Below, one piece after another: positions 11,172 through 33,092 of a DNA stretch of 41,050 nucleotides (positions within the stretch are counted from its first letter, which is position 1; each line of letters starts with the position of its first letter). A program made the position numbers and the translations under genes. The notes under the pieces were generated by a model. It saw nothing but the letters and a program-made list of their open reading frames with translations, was not told the DNA's origin and made no database searches. Where the stretch lies: NCBI GenBank assembly GCA_003614675.1, contig ML002332.1, forward strand, positions 1 through 41,050. Direction: 5' to 3'. The stretch is from Dimargaris cristalligena (Eukaryota).

Positions 11172-11714
11172 CTCCTTACCCGCCCGCCCCCACCGAAGAC
11201 TAACTGTCACGAATCCATTTAATCTGGCGCCCACCGTGCTTGCTTCTGAGATACCTACTCTCCTTGTTCTTGGTCCACATCTTCTATTCCTATTTTTTTT
11301 TGCCCTTCCCCTTCTTCCCTTCCTCTCGACCCCTCTTACTGTTGATAAATATAAATACATACATATATATATTTATAATTATTATTACGGTTCTATTACT
11401 GTTATGTCTCTTCGATTATCTATTCTTCTAAGTTAGTCACACTCAAGCCAGTCTGACCATTCCTTTTTGCAGCAAAGTATTTCATCAATTGATTTTATTT
11501 CTCCTTCTGTTTTAGCCTTCCACATCCATTTATTTCCCAACGAAATCTTTTTAAATTCCCCGTTTAATTAGCCTTGTCTTTTCGTTAATTGCAACCAAGC
11601 ATTAGGAGCGCCAATCGTTCCCTATTTCGCTCTAAATTTGGCACCACCATACAGCTGCCACTTTTCCGTCAACCCCCGCCATATATATCACCCCACATAC
11701 CAGCAATCGCCACC

Positions 11715-12719
11715 ATGTACACTCTATCAGCCAGCCCCATAGCGCCCCATAAGGAGGGCAAGAAGGACGCCCCCCGGCCCTACCAGTGCCCCATGTGCCC
11801 CAAGGCCTTCTACCGCCTGGAGCACCAGACCCGCCATATCCGCACCCACACCGGCGAAAAGCCCCACGGCTGCAACTTCCCGGGCTGCAACAAGCGGTTC
11901 TCCCGGTCCGACGAGCTGACTCGTCACCGCCGCACCCACACCAACTCCACCCGCCGCGATCGCCGCATGTATCATTCCGGTTCGCTCCTCAGAGGGCCCT
12001 CGCCGCATCACCACCACCACGACCTGCACTCGGCGCCTCTCGGTGGCCCCATGCTACCGTTCTTTAACGGACCCCGTTCCCACACCATGTCGTACCCCGG
12101 CCCCCCTTCGTCGGTGATGATGACCGACAAGCCCTTTTATTCTCCCCCGCGCTCGGCTTGGCGCCATGCCCCTTATCCTGCTATGCCTGTGAACCATTCC
12201 CGCATGCCTCCGACCCCGTCGCCCAACTCGTCCGCGGCTTCGACTCCCGCCGTGTCGGTGCCCCGGCTGCCGTCGCTGAACTCGCAGCTTAACTCGCCCA
12301 CCTCCCCCGGCCTGGCCCTGCCCGCCCTCTACCGTCCCCGCTCGGCCTCGGTGATTACCCTCCCGAGCGTCCAGCACTTGGACAGCTCCATCAGCAACTC
12401 GGCCTACAGCAGCGACGACGAAACCGCCTCGACTCACTCGGCGTCGGGATACCCCGAGGACGTGAACAGCCGCTATCGTGCCTCTTCTACTGCCTCCAGC
12501 GACTCGGCCGACTTCCCCCTGCTCTCTTCTTTGGAGTCGTCCCCCATTCTCCGTCACTCGGACATGTCCTCGCGGACTGATACCCAATCCCAGCCCCGTC
12601 TGAGTATCTTGGAAATTATTGAGTCTCCCCTGCCGCGCCAGTCGCGCGTGCTGCCCACCCCCAATGCCAAATGCGTTTTAGCCACATCTTCCTTTAAGAT
12701 GCAACCCGTCTTCGTATAA
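11715..12719 (+). CDS. creA: CreA/Mig1-family C2H2 zinc-finger carbon catabolite repressor (334 aa, intronless)
   Basis: ATG at 11715 in gccaccATG context; the ORF track starts upstream at a TTG. Diagnostic fingers [56 protein letters not shown], a Ser/Pro-rich middle, and a C-terminal LSILEII...RVLPTP segment resembling the CreA C-terminal conserved region. Strong GC3 codon bias. Confidence 0.95.
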
Positions 12720-17179: not shown

Positions 17180-18185
17180 ATGGCCGGCTCCAACTCCGTC
17201 TCAGGCACCACCACCACTCTTAGTGACCGGTAGGCTAATTCTTCCAAACTGCTTCAATCCACGGCTCCCTGCCTACTTCGTTCCGGGGGGAGGAGGGGGG
17301 GTCAACGTTATTCAGTGTAGTTATAAGCAGATGCCTGTTATAGACTACCTGGCCTGTCTTTTAGTCATTTACTTGATCCGCCTCAGGCCCATGGGGATCC
17401 ACAATGGACAGAGACGGTGCTGACGGTTACCGGCAGGCGCGTAGTGATCAACCCTCTAACCGTGATCGAACGCCTAAACTACAAGCAGAGAATCCTAGAC
17501 GGGTGTCCCTCCCGCCCCCATTCTGCCCCAGTGCACGTCGTATGGAACCACTCTCCGTCGTGCCCTTGCTAACGCCCATAGCCCTTGTCGCGTCTCTTTA
17601 TATTTATAATTATTATTTTTTTACTTCCCTTCTTCTCCAAATCTACCTTCACCCTTGCCTTCGGACCTCAGAATTGCCGCCCTTAACAAGAAGCGCCGGG
17701 ATGAGTACCAGGCCAAGTCCAGCAGCGACCGGTTCAGCCAACAAATGAAGAACCGCCGGGGTGCGGAGCCCACGACCAAGAAAGATAGGCGTACCATCGT
17801 CGAGCAGTCCTTGAACAAGTCTGCGGGCCGCCGTGGACGCCCGGGCCGTACCTCAGGCCAGGCGGATGCCGCCACCACTCCTGGCACCTCCTCTAAAATC
17901 ATTAAGAAGGCTATTCGCAATGTTATCGCCTCCAAATCTCAGTCCGCCGCCAGCCCCCGGCAGTCAATCAAGGCCAAGAAACCGGCCTCTGCCTCAGGTG
18001 CCAAGAAGGCCGGCTCGAGGAGTCGTCGCAGTGGCAAGGGCACCAAGAAGCCCGAAGCCAAGCCGGCCTCGAAGGATAATCTCGATGAAGACCTGGACTC
18101 GTATATGATGCAGGACGAAGGTCACGCCAAAAACAAACTGGACGCTGACTTGGACGACTACATGGGGGATGCCCCTGAGGCCTAA
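17180..18185 (+). CDS. CHTOP/FoP-like mRNA-export adaptor with duplicated C-terminal UAP56-binding (FoP duplication) motifs; exons 17180-17229 and 17672-18185 (about 187 aa)
   Basis: Exon 1 MAGSNSVSGTTTTLSD(R) with GTAGGC donor at 17230 splices in phase 2 to CAG at 17671, giving TLSDRIAAL. Lys/Arg-rich middle; C-terminus KDNLDEDLDSYM...KNKLDADLDDYM is the tandem LDxxLDxYM motif of CHTOP-type proteins. No RRM seen, so not Yra1/ALYREF. Confidence 0.8.
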
Positions 18186-22341: not shown

Positions 22342-22809
22342 TTAATATAGGTGCGGGGCCATGACCCGGAGCATCGGATGACCGGCCGTCGATCCCTCCC
22401 GCTTCATTTTTTCCGCCTGGAGGATATGTAAGCTCTGACTGTACTTGTTTTCCCGCGCACGTTGAAAAACCGATTTACCCACCCCATCCAGCACGTTGAT
22501 ATCCACCCCGTCGTCGAACGACAGCAGCTGGAGAAGGCCCCTGGGGTTCCGGATGGCCCAGAAAATGGGGGCCACCCCGTCGATGGTGTAGGTGGGGTCG
22601 GCACCGGCGCCCACGAGCAATTGGGCGCATTCGACGTGGCCGAGGGAAAGGGCCAGCATGAGGGAGTTGAAGCAGCCGTGGTCGTCGCGGATAATGGGGT
22701 TATTGACTAAGGGACGGTGGGCCGGATTGGCGAGGAGTTTCCGGAGGCCCCGGGAGTCGTTGGCCATAATGATGAAGTAGAAGGAAAATAAAATCTGTTC
22801 GGTATCCAT
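22342..22809 (-). CDS. Small ankyrin-repeat protein (155 aa)
   Basis: caccaccATGG start context. Ankyrin-like repeats NSLMLALSLGHVECAQLLVGAGADPT, GVAPIFWAI..LLQLL..GVDINVLD and GKSVFQRA. GC3-rich compared with the flanks. Confidence 0.8.
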   Translation of the reverse strand: MDTEQILFSFYFIIMANDSRGLRKLLANPAHRPLVNNPIIRDDHGCFNSLMLALSLGHVECAQLLVGAGADPTYTIDGVAPIFWAIRNPRGLLQLLSFDDGVDINVLDGVGKSVFQRARENKYSQSLHILQAEKMKREGSTAGHPMLRVMAPHLY

Positions 22810-25800
22810 GGTGGTGGGATAGAGGAGAAACGCTGAGTAATAAGCTGCAACTTGCTTTAGTGGAGGTACTTGGCTCTGTTAGGTCAAAGAATGTGGGGTT
22901 TTAAGTCAGGATATTTTATGGAAAGGGAAGTACTGCCGGTTAGTGACCATATGGTGATAATGACAAGATAATAGGGAAAGAATAACCTGAAAGGGCATAA
23001 TCGTATTTTCCGGACACCGTAGAAAGTATAAATTAGAAAAATTAGAAAGCCGACTATTAAATACAAGGGTGAAAAGGTTCGCCAAGAAAGGGGAGGGGTG
23101 GGATTAAATACTGACTAGTTGGCATCGCACCGTAATACAGCGGTGAATCATTAATGCCAATGGGCCAAGGCTTGGCACCACTGGGGTGAGCTCAACAGGT
23201 ACCAGAACCAAGAAGTGCCCGCTTCCGTGGAATGTTACCAGCCCGGTTTGTCACCACCCGCCCATTTAAAGAATAAGGAGCACTTACGTATTTTTGAATT
23301 AGTAATGGTAATCTAGAACTACAGATAAGAAAATAGTTGGGGGAATATAAAAAGACCTATTAGAATTGTACAATAACAGAACACGGGTGATAATTGGCCA
23401 CCGTGTGGCTAAATGATTTTTTTAATAAAAAAAACGGCGGACGTAGAGATAAAGGGTTAATAAGCCAGTTGGTGGAGGGGGTGTGTCATTTATATACGTG
23501 TGCGGGTGATCATATATTTGTATAACCATGTGGACTACGAGAAATCCTCGAAACCGCAATGTCTAGCCTTTCCCGCGGTTAATAAACGGATGATAACAGG
23601 GGAAGAGGCCGATGCTCGGCTATTGCCGGTGGTGTAGACCCTGAATGGGGACAATCTGGCCGAGAGGAAGCGGGGGATGTGTTCATCTACGTATGGCCAA
23701 CATATTAATATACATGCAGAGACATCCATTTGGTTCCACGGTGAATTATCGTATGTTCCAAACCTTGTCGTTGGGGCCAGTGGCCTCATCGGCAGAGGAG
23801 CATGGGGCGGGAAGAGGAGACGAGGCGGTGGGTGGAAGGCCTAGACGTTTGGCCGGTTATTGTAAAGGGATGGTCATATAAAAATGGCCTGGTACGTACG
23901 GTATGACCCCGGTGACCAGTTGAAGAAATCTAAGGAGAGGAGGGGGGGTGCTTAATGGGGCGGGTTGGAGAATCCGGACCGGGCTCCCGGACCCGTAGAC
24001 CAAGAGGGATGAAAAGTGGGGCCATTTATGCGGAAAAGGCGTACGAAGCACGGCCGGCTCAGCTGACAAATGTATGACAGCGGCCGCTAATACAAGGGGA
24101 AGGTGGAGGGTTGGTGTAATTACTTGGCGAGTATAGGGGCGGGGCAAGGTGGATGCCATAGATGGGTGGCATTATTGCCTTGGGCGCCAATGGTGGCGGG
24201 TGGGGACGGGATAGCCGCATTGTCCGACATTGGCGAAGTTCATTGAGTGCGCTGCTTCGAAGGCTGGCCGTGTTCGGGTGGTTTGGGCGGAAGCTAATAA
24301 TAGCAGGACGGGGCCGGTTCGGAAATGTCGGAAATTAAAAAATAATAATTAAATTAGGAAGTATGATGAGGGGGTGGAATGGCGTGTTTAACCGGTTAGG
24401 GCCCACTGAACGGAATTTGACCATGCCAAATGACCATTCACTATTCGTTTTTTTTAATACCGAGCGGGATGGATGTTGTCCCATAGCCCCAGCCCGGCTG
24501 AAATTCTCGAAAAAATAAAGCGCGTAATATACATGACCGGGCCAAGATAGGACGGACGACCGTACAGTAGGGACTAACTAAGGCAGGCTATGTTCCAAAA
24601 CCACGCACTACAAGCTCCACCAACTAACTAGATGCTGTAGTGTATTTTATTTCTCACTCCAAATTAACCTATACTATTAGGAGTGTAGGGAATGCCAATG
24701 AAGCAGTATGGAGCTCGGCTTTCAATGAATACCAACGGTAAATTTCCCTAGCAGGATAGTGTTAGCCATGGGATGCTCATCCCCCTCCTCTAATAGCATT
24801 TCATGTTTGGCTGATGTGAGAGCGCTTCGACCCATTCTGGAAGGGTATTTTTACGGGCCACTACTATATATGTAAACCCAACCGGATTTCACGGTAAGAA
24901 GCCAAGTCTCTTAGCATGGCTGTCTGCAATGTCTGTCGTGGACAAGAGGCGCTATTATTTGTGCATAGGATTGAAGAGCGGAAATCTCCCAATAGGCCGA
25001 ATCCATGTCCCTTCACCATAAAGACCATTTGGGTATGGTAGGCCGGGTAATTTAATGGGGTATTAATATTGATTTCACGCCAACAACAAAATAGCCTCTA
25101 CATGCAATAGCAGCGGATCACTAATGTTGGATGCAGGAGATTAAATTCGGGGTCAGTGGGCAGTTAAGGAGGAAGCATAAGCGACAGGTAACTTCAGTGA
25201 CCACCCAATCGGCCAACCACATCCCAGTGGGGTCGGGGGATGTGCGGTACCTAGCTAGCCACGCCTGTTCGGACTTTGGAATGGAACGGCGAGTGTACGG
25301 GATCAACCGAAAGTATTCACCGGCCCATGTCTGAGTTTGACAGGGATAACGACAAGGGCTTCTCCCCAGTAGCTTATATAGGACAGTGTGTAGACAATCA
25401 CAAGCCGCCAGGAACCCAGAAGAATGGACCAGCAAGCACCCTTGATTGTCGCTTGGACACGGCCATGGATGCCCTAAGCAGGAAGGACAGCATTCCTTTT
25501 TTCTTCGTTACTAAAGTGGGACAAGTATTACTTGACCATGCAGCGGTTCAACGTGTGTGGCAACGCTTTATTAAGCCTCGTCCCCTGAAAAGGGGGAAAT
25601 GGCGGCGTGACCAGCACATTAACGAGTATCCATCGAAGTTTCGCGGAGGGTCACACGCAGCTGGGCTGGTATACGAGACTAAAACCACCCGCAGGGGTTG
25701 TGAAGTGGTTGGTGATGGTATTGACGGAGGAGGAACCCCCCACACTGAGAGAGAGAGAGAGGGAGAGAGAGTTCAATACCACTACTTACTACATCATCCC

Positions 25801-26117
25801 CTGTCTTCCAACCAATGCCCGTTGCACTGCCCTTTTTTCCCTATCCTTGCCCTTTGTCCTGTTCTTGCTATCCTTATGCCGCCTTATCAACTACCCCACT
25901 TGACGTGCCGCTCATGATCTTCTGTCTTGTATTCCCTGTTTGCTCCACGTATTATTAGCATTCCCTATTTTCATTCTACTTACCCGCCGGCTGTGGTGAA
26001 AGTGTGCATAGCACTTCTTCTACCCTTAGTCTATTTCTCAATCAGCATTGTCTGGCCTAGTAGCTGACCCGTCTGTCTCTCTACCTCTGGTCGATCCCAT
26101 AGTGTAGCCCAAGTACC

Positions 26118-27362
26118 ATGTCCATTACTGACCTACAGGTGGTCCGCTCATTGGCGGCCGTACCCCTCTCTATCGTGATCCTTTCAGCATGTGGTGCAAT
26201 CATTCTATTGGCCATCACCATCCTGGTCTATCGCAAAGTACGCGGTAGCTCGGACCTACCCAAATACTCCACTTCGACTTCAACCTCGTCCGAAAGCCGG
26301 CCTTTGCTGGGGTCGGGGGCGGTAAGTGCTGGTACACTGGCCAATGGTGGATATCGGGCGGCTCCTCACACCCGCGCCCAGGGCCCCCCCGCTCCCGGGT
26401 CACCCTATAACCGCGACCGCCAAACCATTATCCCCAGTAGTATCGACGCCCACATCACCATTAGCCCTCTGGTTGGCGGCGGCTCCCCAGTATCCTCCCC
26501 CCTGGCCGTCCAACCCAGTGAAGAAATTGAGGACCTGTACCTGGCCGATGAACTGACATCGAGCCCCGAACTTGCCTCTACATCATTCATTGAGCACCTG
26601 GATCGTCGCAATTTATCACTTCCAGCCAGTAATAGTAGTAGTAGTAGTGGTGGTGGTGACGCGGCTGATGCCAACCGGATTATTGTTGTTATCAGTGATG
26701 AAAATGGGCATGAATCAGCCCGCTTTACGTCGGATTTGGTAGCGGATTCCACCACGGCCACCTCCACGACCGATAGCCCGACCGTAACCCGGCCCGCGTC
26801 GATTAACACCAATCTCCCTGTATATGATACGCTTGACCAAACCGCAGTTCCCAGCCCCGTATCTGAGGTAGATATCGCTGAGACCCCGTCACATCCAGCC
26901 GGCTCGCCCCTTCCCCCCACCGCCGATCGGAGCCTATCTAATCCGGTAGCCTCGACCCCCACGTCGCCTTCCAATGGACCCACGGCCCCTCCCTCATCCA
27001 CCCCCTCCCCTACTAAGCTGCAGTGCACCGACTTCACCCCGTCGCCCGAAGCACTCCCGTCAATACTGGAACGTGCCCCCAAGGCGTTGGCCCAGCTTAA
27101 CTCCAATGCCCCGGAATTTATCCCCGCTGCTGTCAAATCCACAACCCCCTTCGTTGCTCGATGCTGCCTAGATGGGACCGGCCAGTGTGACTCCGAGGCC
27201 TGCCCCCATGTCCGCCCGATAACCGTGTGTCCCGACTATCCCCAATGTAAGGCGGGAAATGATTGCACCCACCAACACCCTGAAGAAACAACACCGGCCC
27301 CTAAGCCCCGCCGCAAGCAAAAGAGGACCCAGAAGAAGAAGGGTGCTCGGCGAGTCCGCTAA
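26118..27362 (+). CDS. Single-pass membrane protein with dileucine motif, long disordered Ser/Thr/Pro region, PAM2 motif, CCCH zinc finger(s) and basic tail (414 aa)
   Basis: accATG start. Hydrophobic helix aa about 12-38 followed by RKVR; ESRPLL; QLNSNAPEFIP; CPDYPQCKAGNDCTHQHP; C-terminal KPRRKQKRTQKKKGARRVR. Confidence 0.85.
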   Translation: MSITDLQVVRSLAAVPLSIVILSACGAIILLAITILVYRKVRGSSDLPKYSTSTSTSSESRPLLGSGAVSAGTLANGGYRAAPHTRAQGPPAPGSPYNRDRQTIIPSSIDAHITISPLVGGGSPVSSPLAVQPSEEIEDLYLADELTSSPELASTSFIEHLDRRNLSLPASNSSSSSGGGDAADANRIIVVISDENGHESARFTSDLVADSTTATSTTDSPTVTRPASINTNLPVYDTLDQTAVPSPVSEVDIAETPSHPAGSPLPPTADRSLSNPVASTPTSPSNGPTAPPSSTPSPTKLQCTDFTPSPEALPSILERAPKALAQLNSNAPEFIPAAVKSTTPFVARCCLDGTGQCDSEACPHVRPITVCPDYPQCKAGNDCTHQHPEETTPAPKPRRKQKRTQKKKGARRVR

Positions 27363-30300
27363 GTGCCGTTCATTCCCCAGTTCCCCCGAACAACCCAGCA
27401 CACTTGAAGAAGAAAGAAATAATAATAACAACAGTAACACTGACTCAGTTGTGATGATCAACTTACTCACTCATGAGTCACTGGAATGGAAGTGAAAGAT
27501 CCTTTTACATCTTGACGAGAGACATGTGATTTTATATTGAACCCTTTTTATTTGCACCAATGTTGGCAATAGTGATGTTGGCCATGATTGGTGGTGGCTC
27601 TGTGGGTGAATATTGGAGAGGGGGGGTCAGAGAGATCAGGCAGAGGGTATAGTTTGATGGTGCAAGCTGCTGGTTGACGGCAGACTATCCACCCATTCAA
27701 TTCGGATTCGACCAAAGCTCTGATTTAATTAATGTTGCAATATCTCTGGGGTTCATTGTTATTACGATTGGTATATTATCTTCAGGTAGCTTTTTATTAT
27801 TAATATTATTATTTTTATATCGTACTCCACCGTCGGATGACTCATAGTATGAGTATTACTACTATCACTACCATTATGTACTATACGGCCGTCGAATCAC
27901 ATATAGCCCATGTGGCTAACCGAGATCAGATTGTTGTTGGGCACCAACCTACCGCATTGCCTTTCATTATTAGGACAAAATTACCATTAAACAGCTAAAA
28001 TACGTCACTGATCGTGGATTGAATAAAGGGTCTCGATTGGGGATGAATTATCTAAGCTTGTGGGGATTGCCCTATCGAAGCAGTAGGTCGTTTTATAGCA
28101 GGGCCCGTTTAATCCCTATAGGTAGGTGTGGCTTGTATCACACTGGCCAGATCAGCAGAACCGGTTGATTGGATAGAGTGGGTTACAGCCAAGCAACATT
28201 TAAGGTTGCTCGCTACGTATCATTATGGTTATGGTTATGGCTGGGGGAGATATACCTCGCCGCCCAGAGAACGGGGCCGGTGGTGGTTCATTTATTATAA
28301 ATTAGGCCAGGTTATATTGGGATGGGTTGATAACAGTTGTATAGTAGCAGGAGAATATGGTCCACAAGTGTACGTTTGAAGAAGGGGAAGTCCAAAACAG
28401 TGGGGGGAGATCCACTCCAGGATTCGTGTGGGCCCCTCCTCTTTCCTTCCCAAATTCCGGTTAATTTTAGCGACCCCTGAATCATGAGCCCCTTTCGTTG
28501 TTTCGCTTAGTAAGTATTGTCTACAGCAGGAGGGCAACGTGTTGCTGCTGACATGTGTGTGTGTAATTCGGGGAGAATGGTTTTTTATAATTCGACCTCC
28601 CCTGATGAGTGGTGGGGTTCTTATCACCTCCAGGGTACGTACATGTATCCCCCAACGCCAATTGATGTTGACGCTTGGATTTGAAAAGGTATAATAAATT
28701 ACCTCACCCATTAATTATTCCACTGGTATAGCAGCTGATGATGATATGTGAGAGCTGGAGAGGGTGAAGTAGGGGAAGGGATGGACGCGTACAGTGGCCC
28801 CCCTGGCTTCGCTCATTGTCGACCCCACGGGTAAGGAGACGCAGACAATCCTGGGGCTTGGTACTGTATGGGGGACACCCCTCCCCACCATCACGGTGCA
28901 CGCGTCCCACCACCACCCAGTTCCAGTTCCAGTTTTAGTTCGCAGTCGCCTTATCCATCATGTTATTAGTATCTCCCCTGGTTGTGAGAGTGAAAGTGAA
29001 AGTGAGAGAGAGAGAGAGAGGTGTGTTTGGGCCACGGCGATTAGTGGATGGGCGAGTGTGTGGCGGCAGCCAACTACCAACCACACAGTAGGAGGTGGGA
29101 CATTAGTTGGAGGTGAGCCGTGGGATATTCCCCCGCGGACCAGTTAGGAGAGAGTATAGGAGCGAGCGAGTGAGTGAGTGAGGAAGGAGATGATAGCCAG
29201 CCAGTGGCGATCGCTATTATGTCTCTCTCTCACTTTCACTCACATCCGCCGTTTTTTTTCCAGTTGGGAAGGCGGGTATTTGGATATAAGGAAGGCGGGT
29301 ATTTTATGGTGTGGGGTCCCCCTACCCTCCCGTGATCCGTTTCGCGTCTTTCTCTCTCTCTCTCTCTCTTTCTTCACATTTTTCTTTCCCTTCCCCTGCT
29401 TTTTTTATATCTAATTTATTATTTTCTTTTATTTGTCCCGCTTGCCCCATACTCGGTAAGTCGCGTCGTTCTTCTATTCGTCCGTTTCTGCCGTTTCCCC
29501 CATCCATTGTCCCATTTTCTCTTTCCTCCTATCCTATCCTATCCTTAGCTTGGCCTCCTTTTGGGCCGCTGCATAGTAGTATAGCCAGAGTCTCCTTCGC
29601 CTACGTACGGAGAGATTCCCCCCGTTCTTAGGACACCGATCCACACCCCCTCCGCTAAACCAGCCCTGCCTTTACATGCTCGTTTCTCTTTCCCATTCTA
29701 TTTCGGTTTGGACTTTCCCTTTCTTCCTTTCCCTCCTCTAACCCCCCTCTCCCCCATTCTCTCCACACTTTCGCTGGGAATTCCCTCGTCGCTTCGATTC
29801 CACGTCCGACTAGTTCCCTCGTCTTTGTAACGCGAAAGTGTGGTTCGACTCGTTACTAAGCCCGCTTAGTACTACTTGTAGTTTAGCTCCTCATTTCAGG
29901 CTTGTTTACCCTTTCTGCCTAACCGCATAACTGAACCTTCCAGGTATACAGCCCCCCTCCACTCATCCACAGCCTCCCGGTTATCCGTGTATACTTCTCG
30001 GCTGTCCAAAATCATCATTTTTATATATATTATAGAACCATATTGTTCGACCCAGCTACCTAGTGTCGTCGCTTTCAGGTAGGTTATCTATACATAATTG
30101 TGGGAGTAATCCCCGTATGGATTTGGTCTCACCGCAGTAAGTGGGGTAGTGCCGAGCGGGGTTTGCTTAACCACCACCACCCCCCAGTCTCGTAAAGTTC
30201 ATTCATGCATTTATTCATCGTTATTCGTTCGGGCTTACTTCATACCCCACGGTTCTCCGATGTGTGTGTCCCTTTTACCGGGATATGCATACATTCCATT

Positions 30301-30588: not shown

Positions 30589-33092
30589 ATGAACCCGTCG
30601 CATGACCCCGCCTTCTCAGAGCACTCGTAAGTCCACCCCTTTAATATACATATATTCCCATTCTCCCTATCGAATTTCGACGGGAAATCCGGCCCCATTC
30701 CTTCTACTTGAGAGAGAATTACTAATACCCCTCGTTAACAACCCGCCTTTCCACCCCGTGTGCTTCTCGACTCCAATTGATAAATTCTAACCTACCCTTA
30801 CCTGAACCATCTGCGCACATGTCCCTCTTTTCCAGCCCTAATAATGATCATAGTTTAGTTTCCGACCCCATGAGTATTAGCTCCCCAGTCGAACCCCCTA
30901 CCGATTACCACCCGCCTTTTGCCGCCAAGGCCCCGCGATCCGACTATAGCAACGGCCACGGCCTATCCTCTGCACCCACCGACAGTCGTGGATCCAAGCC
31001 CCTGTCTAACCCGCCCTCCCACCCGTCAGACTATGTGCCATCTACCCCATCTAACCGACCATCCAACGGAACCTCATCGCTGGACTCTCAACATAAATCG
31101 TACCCGCCCATGTCGAAAGAACAAACCAAGTACTGTCAGGCCATTGTGCGGTCTATGAAGCGGCACCGGGACGCCGGCCCCTTCTTGGAGCCCGTTGATC
31201 CCGTTAAACTCAATATTCCCGACTATACCTCCATTGTGAAAAACCCCATGGATATAAGTACCGTCGAAAAGAAACTGACCTCTGGTCAATACGCCGACGT
31301 CAGTCGATTTATATCCGACGTGGAATTGATTTTCGCCAACTGTGTTTTATACAACGGGTCCGAATCCGTAATTGCCAAGATGGCCCAAAGTCTTGAACGG
31401 TTGTTTAATAACCAGGTAAAGAAGATCCCCAACTGGCCCCCCGCGGGTGGTCGTGGCGTCGCATCCAAGAAGCCGCCCGCCAAATCCAAGGACCCGTCCA
31501 CTACGACTCACCTTCCCATATCCCGGACTCCGAGCGACCACCGGATTAAGCGGGATAATCCGCCGCCCGGTCGGGATCCTTCCACCCCCATTGATGCCGC
31601 GCTCCAGCGACGTCGCTCTCGCCCCGGCTCCGACCCCCAGCTCAAATTCTGCCACCAAGTGATTCGGGAGTTATTCAAAAAGTCCCACGCCAGCTTCGCT
31701 TATGCCTTTTACGAGCCAGTGGACTACGTGACCCTGAATATTCCTGACTACCCCCACATCGTCAAACAGCCTATGGATCTAACTACCCTCAAGAAGAGAC
31801 TGGAGAGTGGCCAGTACGACAATGCCGATGAATTTGAAGCCGATGCGCGCCTAATTTTCCACAACTGCTATCTTTTTAATCCCCCAGATAACCCCGTTCA
31901 CCAAATGGGGCGCATGCTAGAAGACGTCTTTAACAAGAAGTGGTCCGAGCTACCACCTCCCATGACCCCCGGATCGGCCGCCCTTTCCCCACCACCACAG
32001 CCCCGGGAGCCCGTTCGGACCCACCCACCTACTTCGCAAACCCGGGTGATCCACGACGACGAGCCATCGGACGACCAAATGTCGGAGGTGGAACAGAATG
32101 ACGACATTGCCGAGTTTGAGCGTCACTTGGAAAAGATGGCCCGCCAACTAGAAGTCATGAAGCAAGCTAAGCGCAAGCAGAAGGGGGGTGAGGTCTCGAC
32201 ACCTCCCTCCGTTCATCGGCGTAAGTCGTCCACCAAGCCACCCTCCCACCCGTCCCCACTGGCTGCTCCGCCTCGGGGACGGACAGAGCGTCCTACTGAT
32301 GCCCCCCGTAAGCGATCGCAAAGTTCGGTTGGTGGGTACGGCAGTGGTTCGGACGATGCTCCTAATTTGGGTCTCGCCCCCGCGGGTGGCGTTCGGGAGA
32401 TTACCTATGAACAGAAGCAGGAGCTCAGCGATGGTATAAGCAAGCTCTCCCCCGATCACATGGTCGAAGTCGTTTCGATTATTCGGAGCTCTATGCCCGA
32501 GATTAATGATACGGCCCAGGACGAGATTGAACTGGATATCGATTCCCTGGATCGGAACACCCTCTGGCGACTCTACTCCTTCGTTCGGGAACACACCCAT
32601 CCCCCGCCCAAGAAAGTCCGCCGGGTAAGCCAAACGGTCAATAGCTATACTGCGCCGATGCCCCCACCCCAAGCTGGCCACCCACCTGCTGGGAAGCGTC
32701 AGCGGTTGCAATCGGCGGTTATGGAAATGGATCAAACCCGGCGCATTAGTCAGCTGGAGGAAAAACTGCGGCAGTTTGATTCTGTTGTTCGGGCGTCCCC
32801 TAAACGTAAGTACCTTATTGGGTTGGACTCGAACGATCGTCCTATTTTTTTGTATTCCCGCATTGGTTCACGGGTGGACCCTTGGGCCAACGCCATGCCG
32901 ATTGATTATTGTTTAACCTAATGTATCTGTATGTATATTCATCATATTTTGTCCCGTATATTCTCCCCCTTATTAGACCACGAGAGCGAGATTGACATCG
33001 AGCGTGAAGATGACTACAATAGTAGCAGCGATAGTGGCAGCTCCAGCGACTCCGGATCCGATTCCGATGATTCAGGTAGCCAAAGCGACTAA
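30589..33092 (+). CDS. BDF1: BET-family protein (Bdf1-like: two bromodomains + ET domain + SEED tail), short form; exons 30589-30626, 30836-32805, 32977-33092 (about 707 aa)
   Basis: BD1 (PFLEPVDPVKLNIPDYTSIVKNPMDISTVEKKL..FANCVLYNG), BD2 (FYEPVDYVTLNIPDYPHIVKQPMDLTTLKKRL..FHNCYLFNP), ET domain (ITYEQKQELSDGISKL..EIELDIDSLDRNTLWRLYSFV) and a Ser/Asp-rich last exon. Introns 30627-30835 (GTAAGT..CAG, phase 2) and 32806-32976 (GTAAGT..TAG, phase 1) keep frame. The first exon is less certain; an alternative ATG lies at 30819. Confidence 0.92.

Follow-up and report, generated by a model that had tools for sequence, protein, structure and literature searches.

A candidate membrane-anchored adaptor for poly(A)-binding protein–mRNA complexes in the fungus Dimargaris cristalligena

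The open reading frame (ORF) at positions 26118..27362 of a 41,050-nt stretch of Dimargaris cristalligena DNA (contig ML002332.1, assembly GCA_003614675.1; hereafter the window) encodes a protein in which an N-terminal hydrophobic helix is followed by a long disordered linker and then, near the C-terminus, by a peptide resembling PAM2, the motif that binds the MLLE domain of poly(A)-binding protein (PABP), by a Cys3His (CCCH) zinc finger and by a polybasic tail. Four of these elements (ORF, helix, PAM2 peptide and finger) go beyond what chance would give. The reading that we put forward, namely that this is a real protein-coding gene, restricted to D. cristalligena as far as our searches reach, and that its product may act as a membrane-bound adaptor capturing PABP-coated poly(A) messenger ribonucleoproteins (mRNPs), is a tentative one, to which we would give somewhat less than an even chance; taken as a whole, a membrane tether for PABP/poly(A) mRNPs encoded by a species-restricted gene is plausible, unusual and unproven. 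The original prediction, which was made on the same DNA, had described this succession of elements, and hydropathy, motif shuffles and AlphaFold2 modelling bear it out: the helix, RKVR, ESRPLL, AQLNSNAPEFIP, CPDYPQCKAGNDCTHQH and the Lys/Arg tail are all where it had placed them. It had gone on to propose a membrane receptor for mRNPs on vacuoles or endosomes, a proposal of which the architecture and the probable orientation stand, whereas the organelle and the poly(A)-specific binding do not. The elements are as follows, all on the forward (+) strand.

26118..27362, +, whole ORF, ATG to TAA, uninterrupted, 414 residues plus stop
26151..26231, +, hydrophobic helix, residues 12-38 (L12 to Y38), uncharged, a signal anchor or single transmembrane segment
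26232..26243, +, RKVR, residues 39-42, directly after the helix, on its more positive flank
26292..26309, +, ESRPLL, residues 59-64, fitting [DE]xxxL[LI]
26673..26738, +, predicted beta-hairpin island in the linker, residues 186-207 (RIIVVISDE...), AlphaFold2, low confidence
27090..27125, +, PAM2-like peptide AQLNSNAPEFIP, residues 325-336, a pattern match, with Pfam PF07145 below its cut-off
27162..27209, +, first Cys/His cluster CCLDGTGQCDSEACPH, residues 349-364 (C349, C350, C357, C362, H364)
27228..27278, +, CCCH finger CPDYPQCKAGNDCTHQH, residues 371-387, C-x5-C-x5-C-x3-H (C371, C377, C383, H387)
27294..27359, +, polybasic tail PAPKPRRKQKRTQKKKGARRVR, residues 393-414, net charge +12 in 22 residues

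The peak 19-residue Kyte-Doolittle window of the protein covers residues 19-37, with a mean of 2.98. AlphaFold2, run on the full-length protein without an alignment, likewise placed a helix at residues 4-42, with block values of the predicted local distance difference test (pLDDT) of 71, 93 and 92 over residues 11-40, and this helix is the only confidently folded part of the model and the only one with pLDDT above 90. According to the positive-inside rule, the more positive flank of a membrane helix lies on the cytosolic side. Here the greater positive charge follows the helix (net charge +3 in 15 residues, vs 0 in the 11 residues before it, or +1 counting the free amino end), so that the long C-terminal part is probably cytosolic, as the original prediction had it. 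A peptide motif that works in the cytosol and a Cys3His zinc site needing reducing conditions both agree with such an orientation. Moreover, the protein contains a single methionine, the start residue, so that an AUG-started product of this frame carrying the PAM2 and finger module also carries the helix. A cleaved signal peptide was considered as well, and appeared unlikely by inspection, since cleavage near A24-C25-G26 would leave a hydrophobic N-terminus of 12 residues. The linker beyond the helix (residues 46-315) is made of 18% Ser, 11% Thr and 13% Pro, and the 260 residues from ESRPLL to the PAM2 peptide are rich in Ser, Thr, Pro and Ala, with pLDDT below 50 except in a short hairpin. 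This island (strands 186-193 and 199-207, block pLDDT 52-68) is the sole structure predicted in the linker; its first strand, RIIVVISDE, bears what we take to be a resemblance to hydrophobic/acidic strings of the SUMO-interaction type.

The connection with mRNA comes from the elements at the far end of the linker. In the definition of PAM2 given by PMC2854688 (section 6), position 3 is Leu, occasionally Pro or Phe, position 4 is Asn or Ser, position 5 is Pro or Val, occasionally Thr, position 7 is an invariant Ala, position 9 is preferably Glu, position 10 is an invariant Phe and position 12 is usually Pro. AQLNSNAPEFIP fits this definition at six of the seven specified positions (L3, N4, A7, E9, F10 and P12). 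A Pfam scan of the whole protein, with E-values up to 10 allowed, gave PF07145 as its sole family, at 12.8 bits; when the query was restricted to the last 100 residues, the score rose to 14.8 bits (E 0.024). The frequency of such motifs by chance was estimated from 5000 shuffles of the 414-residue protein, in which the strict form L-N-x-x-A-x-E-F-x-P never appeared (0/5000) and the refined PAM2 pattern appeared 10 times; in the six-frame translation of the window (82,096 residues), the refined pattern had one match, the AQLNSNAPEFIP site. A hidden Markov model search of the whole Ustilago maydis genome returned only 14 PAM2 candidates (PMC4466420), which indicates that such peptides are rare. 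The surroundings of AQLNSNAPEFIP have pLDDT values under 50, i.e., are disordered, as is usual for short linear motifs. As a PAM2 peptide and candidate MLLE binder, it is good but unproven.

Fingers of the Nab2 type (Pfam PF14608) follow the spacing C-x5-C-x4-6-C-x3-H. CPDYPQCKAGNDCTHQH satisfies this rule, to which one of the 5000 shuffles also conformed. When the C-terminal 100 residues were searched against PDB sequences, one match was obtained, an 83-residue Nab2 chain (3zj1_A, E 3.3e-4), the aligned string being CPHxxPxxVCxxYPxC...C...HP. With a 61-residue query lacking the charged tail, the same chain fell to E 0.099, next to MBNL1 (0.093) and CPSF4 (2.3-6.2), indicating that part of the first score was due to charged low-complexity sequence; of the eight PDB sequences listed with an E-value limit of 10, seven belonged to CCCH-finger proteins (Nab2, MBNL1, CPSF4). 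We take 3zj1 to be fingers 1-2 of Nab2, which reportedly contribute little to RNA contact. No CCCH family was reported for the whole protein in Pfam at E up to 10, and a 56-residue finger piece matched PF25542 alone (9.7 bits, E 0.92, cut-off 27). The neighbours of the C-terminal part in the ESM Atlas were CCCH clusters with scores of 0.80 or lower, to be read as a lead only. Just upstream of CPDYPQCKAGNDCTHQH, a further cluster that the original prediction had not mentioned, CCLDGTGQCDSEACPH, reads as a degenerate CCCH (C-x6-C-x4-C-x1-H); in the PDB alignments it pairs with the final part of a Nab2 finger (CPHAHP) and with a finger of CPSF4. The finger itself is most aptly described as a generic CCCH whose spacing is Nab2-like, and for which RNA binding in general is plausible. 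The tail PAPKPRRKQKRTQKKKGARRVR could serve as a nuclear localization signal (NLS) or bind either RNA or lipid.

The ORF is modelled as a single exon in both annotated strains. It sits in a stop-to-stop frame of 419 codons, the second longest in the window, which exceeds the longest open frame in each of 200 simulated 41-kb sequences (first-order Markov, with maxima of 278 when trained on the window and 386 when trained on the ORF itself). With a codon table built from four neighbour genes that have Pfam domains, whose own scores of 0.23-0.40 are self-trained, the annotated frame scored +0.023, the best of the six (the others, -0.297 or lower). A second assembly of D. cristalligena (Kickxellomycota, Dimargaritales) contains a hypothetical protein of 415 residues (P0002) that is 97% identical and has the same start and frame. 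We compared the contigs of another sequencing run with positions 25500-27800 of the window, and aligned the protein with P0002. The contigs showed three substitutions, corresponding to V119A, a synonymous change at S154 and L317V; the protein alignment added S176G, which sits in a repeat skipped by the contig comparison. Two indels, a 12-nt deletion and a 15-nt insertion, both preserve the frame, and all differences fall within the linker, with none in 1056 nt of flanks. The linker is the fastest-changing part of 25500-27800. No RNA run is among the five sequencing runs found to contain this stretch; these are DNA contigs from two studies, four of them being possible sources of the present DNA.

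Some further features of the locus may be mentioned. A candidate 60-nt in-frame intron (GTAAGT ... CAG), used by neither annotation, lies at 26322..26381 on the forward strand and has a CTCAC 13 nt ahead of its AG; its splicing would drop residues 69-88 only. A GA-rich simple repeat (25734-25776) lies about 350 nt 5' of the start codon, and a pyrimidine-rich stretch then runs to the ATG; these may be promoter or 5' untranslated region. An ORF of 276 residues on the opposite strand (26405..27235, -) was discarded as a candidate gene in view of its codon score of -0.288 and its position inside the sense ORF, of whose composition it is most likely a by-product.

Searches for relatives recovered no protein beyond P0002. 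In a word-indexed search against 5.8 billion proteins, the full-length query returned only itself (8000 candidates scored). Its residues 316-400, with an E-value limit of 10, likewise returned only the query (84 candidates), and no candidate for this region came up among shorter proteins, the coverage extending to proteins of 725 residues. A HMMER pass over 1.84 billion representatives also found the query only, two metagenome scans produced 124 and 468 pattern matches of which none was confirmed, and the ESM Atlas had no usable match to the whole protein. We use the word orphan in the sense that no homologue was found in these collections, which may not include the proteomes of sister species (Dimargaritales). 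Among the papers listed by full-text literature searches, in which subscription journals are largely uncovered, none described a transmembrane PAM2 protein, judging from titles and the openings of abstracts, and none connected D. cristalligena to RNA-binding proteins. Neither the literature nor the sequence searches thus yielded a characterised protein of this architecture, in agreement with the original prediction, which had recognised none.

Combining these elements, the following mechanism can be envisaged. The signal-anchor helix (residues 12-38) would fix a single-pass protein in the membrane, leaving some 11 residues lumenal or external and the remaining ~375 directed toward the cytosol or nucleoplasm. 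A disordered leash of ~350 residues, rich in Ser, Thr and Pro, would carry at its far end an mRNA-related module consisting of the PABP-docking PAM2 peptide, the canonical short-spaced CCCH finger preceded by the degenerate one, and the polybasic tail. Through this flexible leash, PABP-coated poly(A) mRNPs might be captured at the membrane surface, the finger and the basic tail adding weak direct contact with RNA. As to the address, we slightly favour the endoplasmic reticulum (ER) and the nuclear envelope, the default site of insertion for a signal anchor, all the more as the layout resembles a known import signal.

Several observations weigh against this reading or some part of it. Position 5 of the PAM2 motif is occupied by Ser329, where Pro, Val or sometimes Thr would be expected. 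This position fills a small hydrophobic cavity of MLLE, and since its change from P to A in Paip2 brings a 5-fold loss of affinity (PMC2854688), we regard the serine as weakening and not as disqualifying. The PF07145 score remains, at best, under the Pfam gathering cut-off of 20. In Nab2, the residues that sandwich adenine are a basic and an aromatic one following Cys1 and a further aromatic one following Cys3 (PMC6371209); these residues are absent from the finger, which reads C-P-D-Y and C-T-H-Q, so that specific polyadenosine binding is unsupported by the sequence. Of the Nab2-type finger initially proposed, the spacing is thus retained, whereas the adenine-binding residues are missing and the match to Nab2 weakens from E 3.3e-4 to 0.099 once the tail is removed. 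The cluster CCLDGTGQCDSEACPH lacks the histidine of C-x3-H and has C-x1-H instead, and outside the helix the AlphaFold2 models are of low confidence, with a mean pLDDT of 43.8 for the full length and 51 for the C-terminal 100 residues. At the level of the gene, the codon score is well under those of the training genes and the G+C content at third codon positions (GC3) is not elevated; the strain changes, three in amino acids (V119A, S176G and L317V) vs one synonymous, give no sign of purifying selection, in numbers too small to decide. As no homologue was found beyond the 97% identical P0002, no motif is demonstrably conserved. Finally, the pattern [DE]xxxL[LI] appeared in 1493 of the 5000 shuffles (30%), which is chance level and carries little information, and because ESRPLL alone bears the vacuolar or endosomal address of the original prediction, that address is unsupported; one at the nuclear envelope appears to have at least equal standing.

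The place of the protein among known systems can be considered with these points in mind. The nearest by function is Upa1, an endosomal mRNP adaptor of U. maydis, which is also membrane-associated and has PAM2 in a disordered region, where it binds the MLLE domain of Pab1 (PMC4466420). Upa1 differs by its FYVE lipid-binding domain, its ankyrin repeats, its RING domain and its PAM2-like motifs for Rrm4 (PMC4466420, PMC11572963). The Dimargaris protein has no FYVE, ankyrin or RING domain in Pfam scans and no F-x-Y, is anchored by a predicted transmembrane helix instead and shows no sequence similarity to Upa1. PAN3 and makorin (MKRN1, or Mkr1 in U. maydis), which carry CCCH fingers, resemble it in having PAM2 and one or more such fingers in one protein, and the makorin CCCH finger was also seen in an ESM Atlas row. 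They differ in being soluble proteins with a pseudokinase or a RING domain and without a membrane helix, and neither was matched in any sequence search. PAN3 is among the PAM2 proteins listed in PMC2854688, and the PAM2 of Mkr1 binds the MLLE domain of Pab1 (PMC11572963). Nab2 and ZC3H14 share the short C-x5-C-x5-C-x3-H spacing and, through 3zj1_A, a local alignment, but they have five to seven fingers as against one good finger. The Dimargaris protein furthermore has no PWI-like domain, lacks the adenine-binding residues described in PMC6371209 and matches no Pfam CCCH model at E 0.1. It is not a member of the Upa1, Nab2 or PAN3 families, and is best filed as a PAM2-bearing adaptor. Another integral membrane protein, p180/RRBP1 of the metazoan ER, has a single N-terminal anchor and a cytosolic basic region holding mRNA. 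It differs in having neither PAM2 nor a CCCH finger and is unrelated in sequence.

With regard to the address, the original prediction supposed that AP-3 recognizes ESRPLL and sorts the protein to vacuoles or endosomes, where docked PABP-mRNPs would serve hitch-hiking transport, local translation or RNA turnover. Although ESRPLL fits the pattern and, 21 residues beyond the helix, is predicted to face the cytosol, and although Upa1 provides a precedent for PAM2 proteins on endosomes (PMC4466420), we consider this version very unlikely: a pattern so frequent in shuffles is uninformative, neither FYVE nor another endosomal domain was found in the Pfam scans, the PAM2-like F-x-Y core described in PMC11572963 does not occur in the sequence and, in Upa1, the contact with Pab1 is itself dispensable (PMC4466420). 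An alternative, unlikely in our estimation and drawn from analogy, is that a signal of the Heh2/Pom121 type would bring the protein to the nuclear envelope or inner nuclear membrane, where the finger and PAM2 could encounter poly(A) RNPs of the nuclear periphery. It counts against such a location that the PABPs to which PAM2 binds are for the most part cytoplasmic. Heh1/Heh2 and Pom121 do share with the Dimargaris protein a transmembrane segment, a long disordered linker and a basic cluster, a resemblance of layout only, as the latter has no LEM or MAN1 domain and its tail is a candidate NLS that would need to be of the importin-beta-binding (IBB)-like kind. On the other hand, a yeast construct with an N-terminal transmembrane segment, a disordered linker and a C-terminal NLS (TM-L-h2NLS-GFP) depends on Kap95 to gather at the inner nuclear membrane, and no longer gathers there once its linker is shortened to 53 residues (PMC4569319). 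Either order of NLS, linker and transmembrane segment works in yeast (PMC4569319). In the Dimargaris protein, the helix ends at residue 38 and the basic part of the tail, of net charge +12, starts at residue 396; the ~350 residues between them are disordered (pLDDT under 50 outside the hairpin) and make a linker far longer than 53 residues. The tail would nevertheless have to bind importin-alpha with high affinity; only one of five mammalian candidate NLSs worked in that system (PMC4569319), and no homologues were found with which the tail could be compared.

Three further explanations were weighed. The ORF may be a young or decaying orphan in which the PAM2-like and CCCH-like strings arose by chance in fast-evolving low-complexity sequence, as would fit a gene with no homologue found beyond P0002, a weak codon bias and a GC3 that is not elevated, an excess of amino-acid over synonymous strain changes in an ORF more variable than its flanks, and a PAM2 score below the Pfam cut-off. 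A frame longer than those of all 200 simulations, two indels that both keep it open and two independent rare motifs on one theme, less than 60 residues apart (10/5000 and 1/5000 shuffles), speak against this explanation, to which we give about the same low likelihood as to the nuclear envelope. Membrane-tethered transcription factors are a known concept, and a finger of the nucleic-acid type together with an NLS-like tail, both distant from an N-terminal anchor, might suggest a regulator from which cleavage frees a soluble fragment containing PAM2, finger and NLS, destined for the nucleus or the cytosol; neither a cleavage site nor a protease partner nor a homologue came to light in support, and the idea, a matter of pure inference, seems very improbable. 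The least probable by our estimate is an inverted topology, in which a type II or secreted surface glycoprotein rich in Ser and Thr would expose a disulfide-bonded C-terminal Cys cluster outside the cell. The Ser, Thr and Pro contents of the linker resemble those of fungal surface mucins, seven Cys occur in 35 residues and there is a weak PDB match to the disulfide-rich C5a (E 0.42). The more positive flank, however, follows the helix, the uncharged stretch of 27 residues is long for a cleaved signal peptide, and the C-x3-H with its CCCH matches, the PAM2 peptide and the polybasic tail are intracellular features.

The neighbouring genes in the window are of varied kinds. An open frame at 17610-18185 (+) has a FoP_duplication domain (PF13865, E 4.9e-15) of the Friend-of-PRMT1/CHTOP-like type, and is probably one exon of an mRNA-export-linked gene, unrelated in sequence to the ORF at 26118..27362. 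The longest open frame of the window, at 30726-32921 (+), encodes a BET-family protein with two bromodomain stretches (PF00439, E 5e-51) and a BET/ET domain (PF17035, E 1.3e-23). Ordinary neighbours are a two-finger C2H2 protein (PF00096, E 3.2e-11) at 11589-12719 (+) and an ankyrin-repeat frame (PF12796) at 22342-22878 (-).

D. cristalligena is an early-diverging mycoparasitic fungus, and to our knowledge the attachment of mRNA to membranes is known for few adaptors, all of them peripheral membrane binders. That its ORF encodes the first integral-membrane PAM2 protein, one holding mRNPs at the nuclear envelope and ER or at the endolysosomal surface, is a possibility, suggested by the motifs, which we regard as rather doubtful, and its weight is limited by its being known from one species. 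If true, this fungus would have found a de novo solution to a task for which Ustilago relies on Upa1, a FYVE protein. A transmembrane anchor joined to a PABP-docking peptide would then amount to a minimal membrane receptor for polyadenylated mRNA, which could be engineered, and the gene would provide an example of a lineage-specific gene assembled from short linear motifs.

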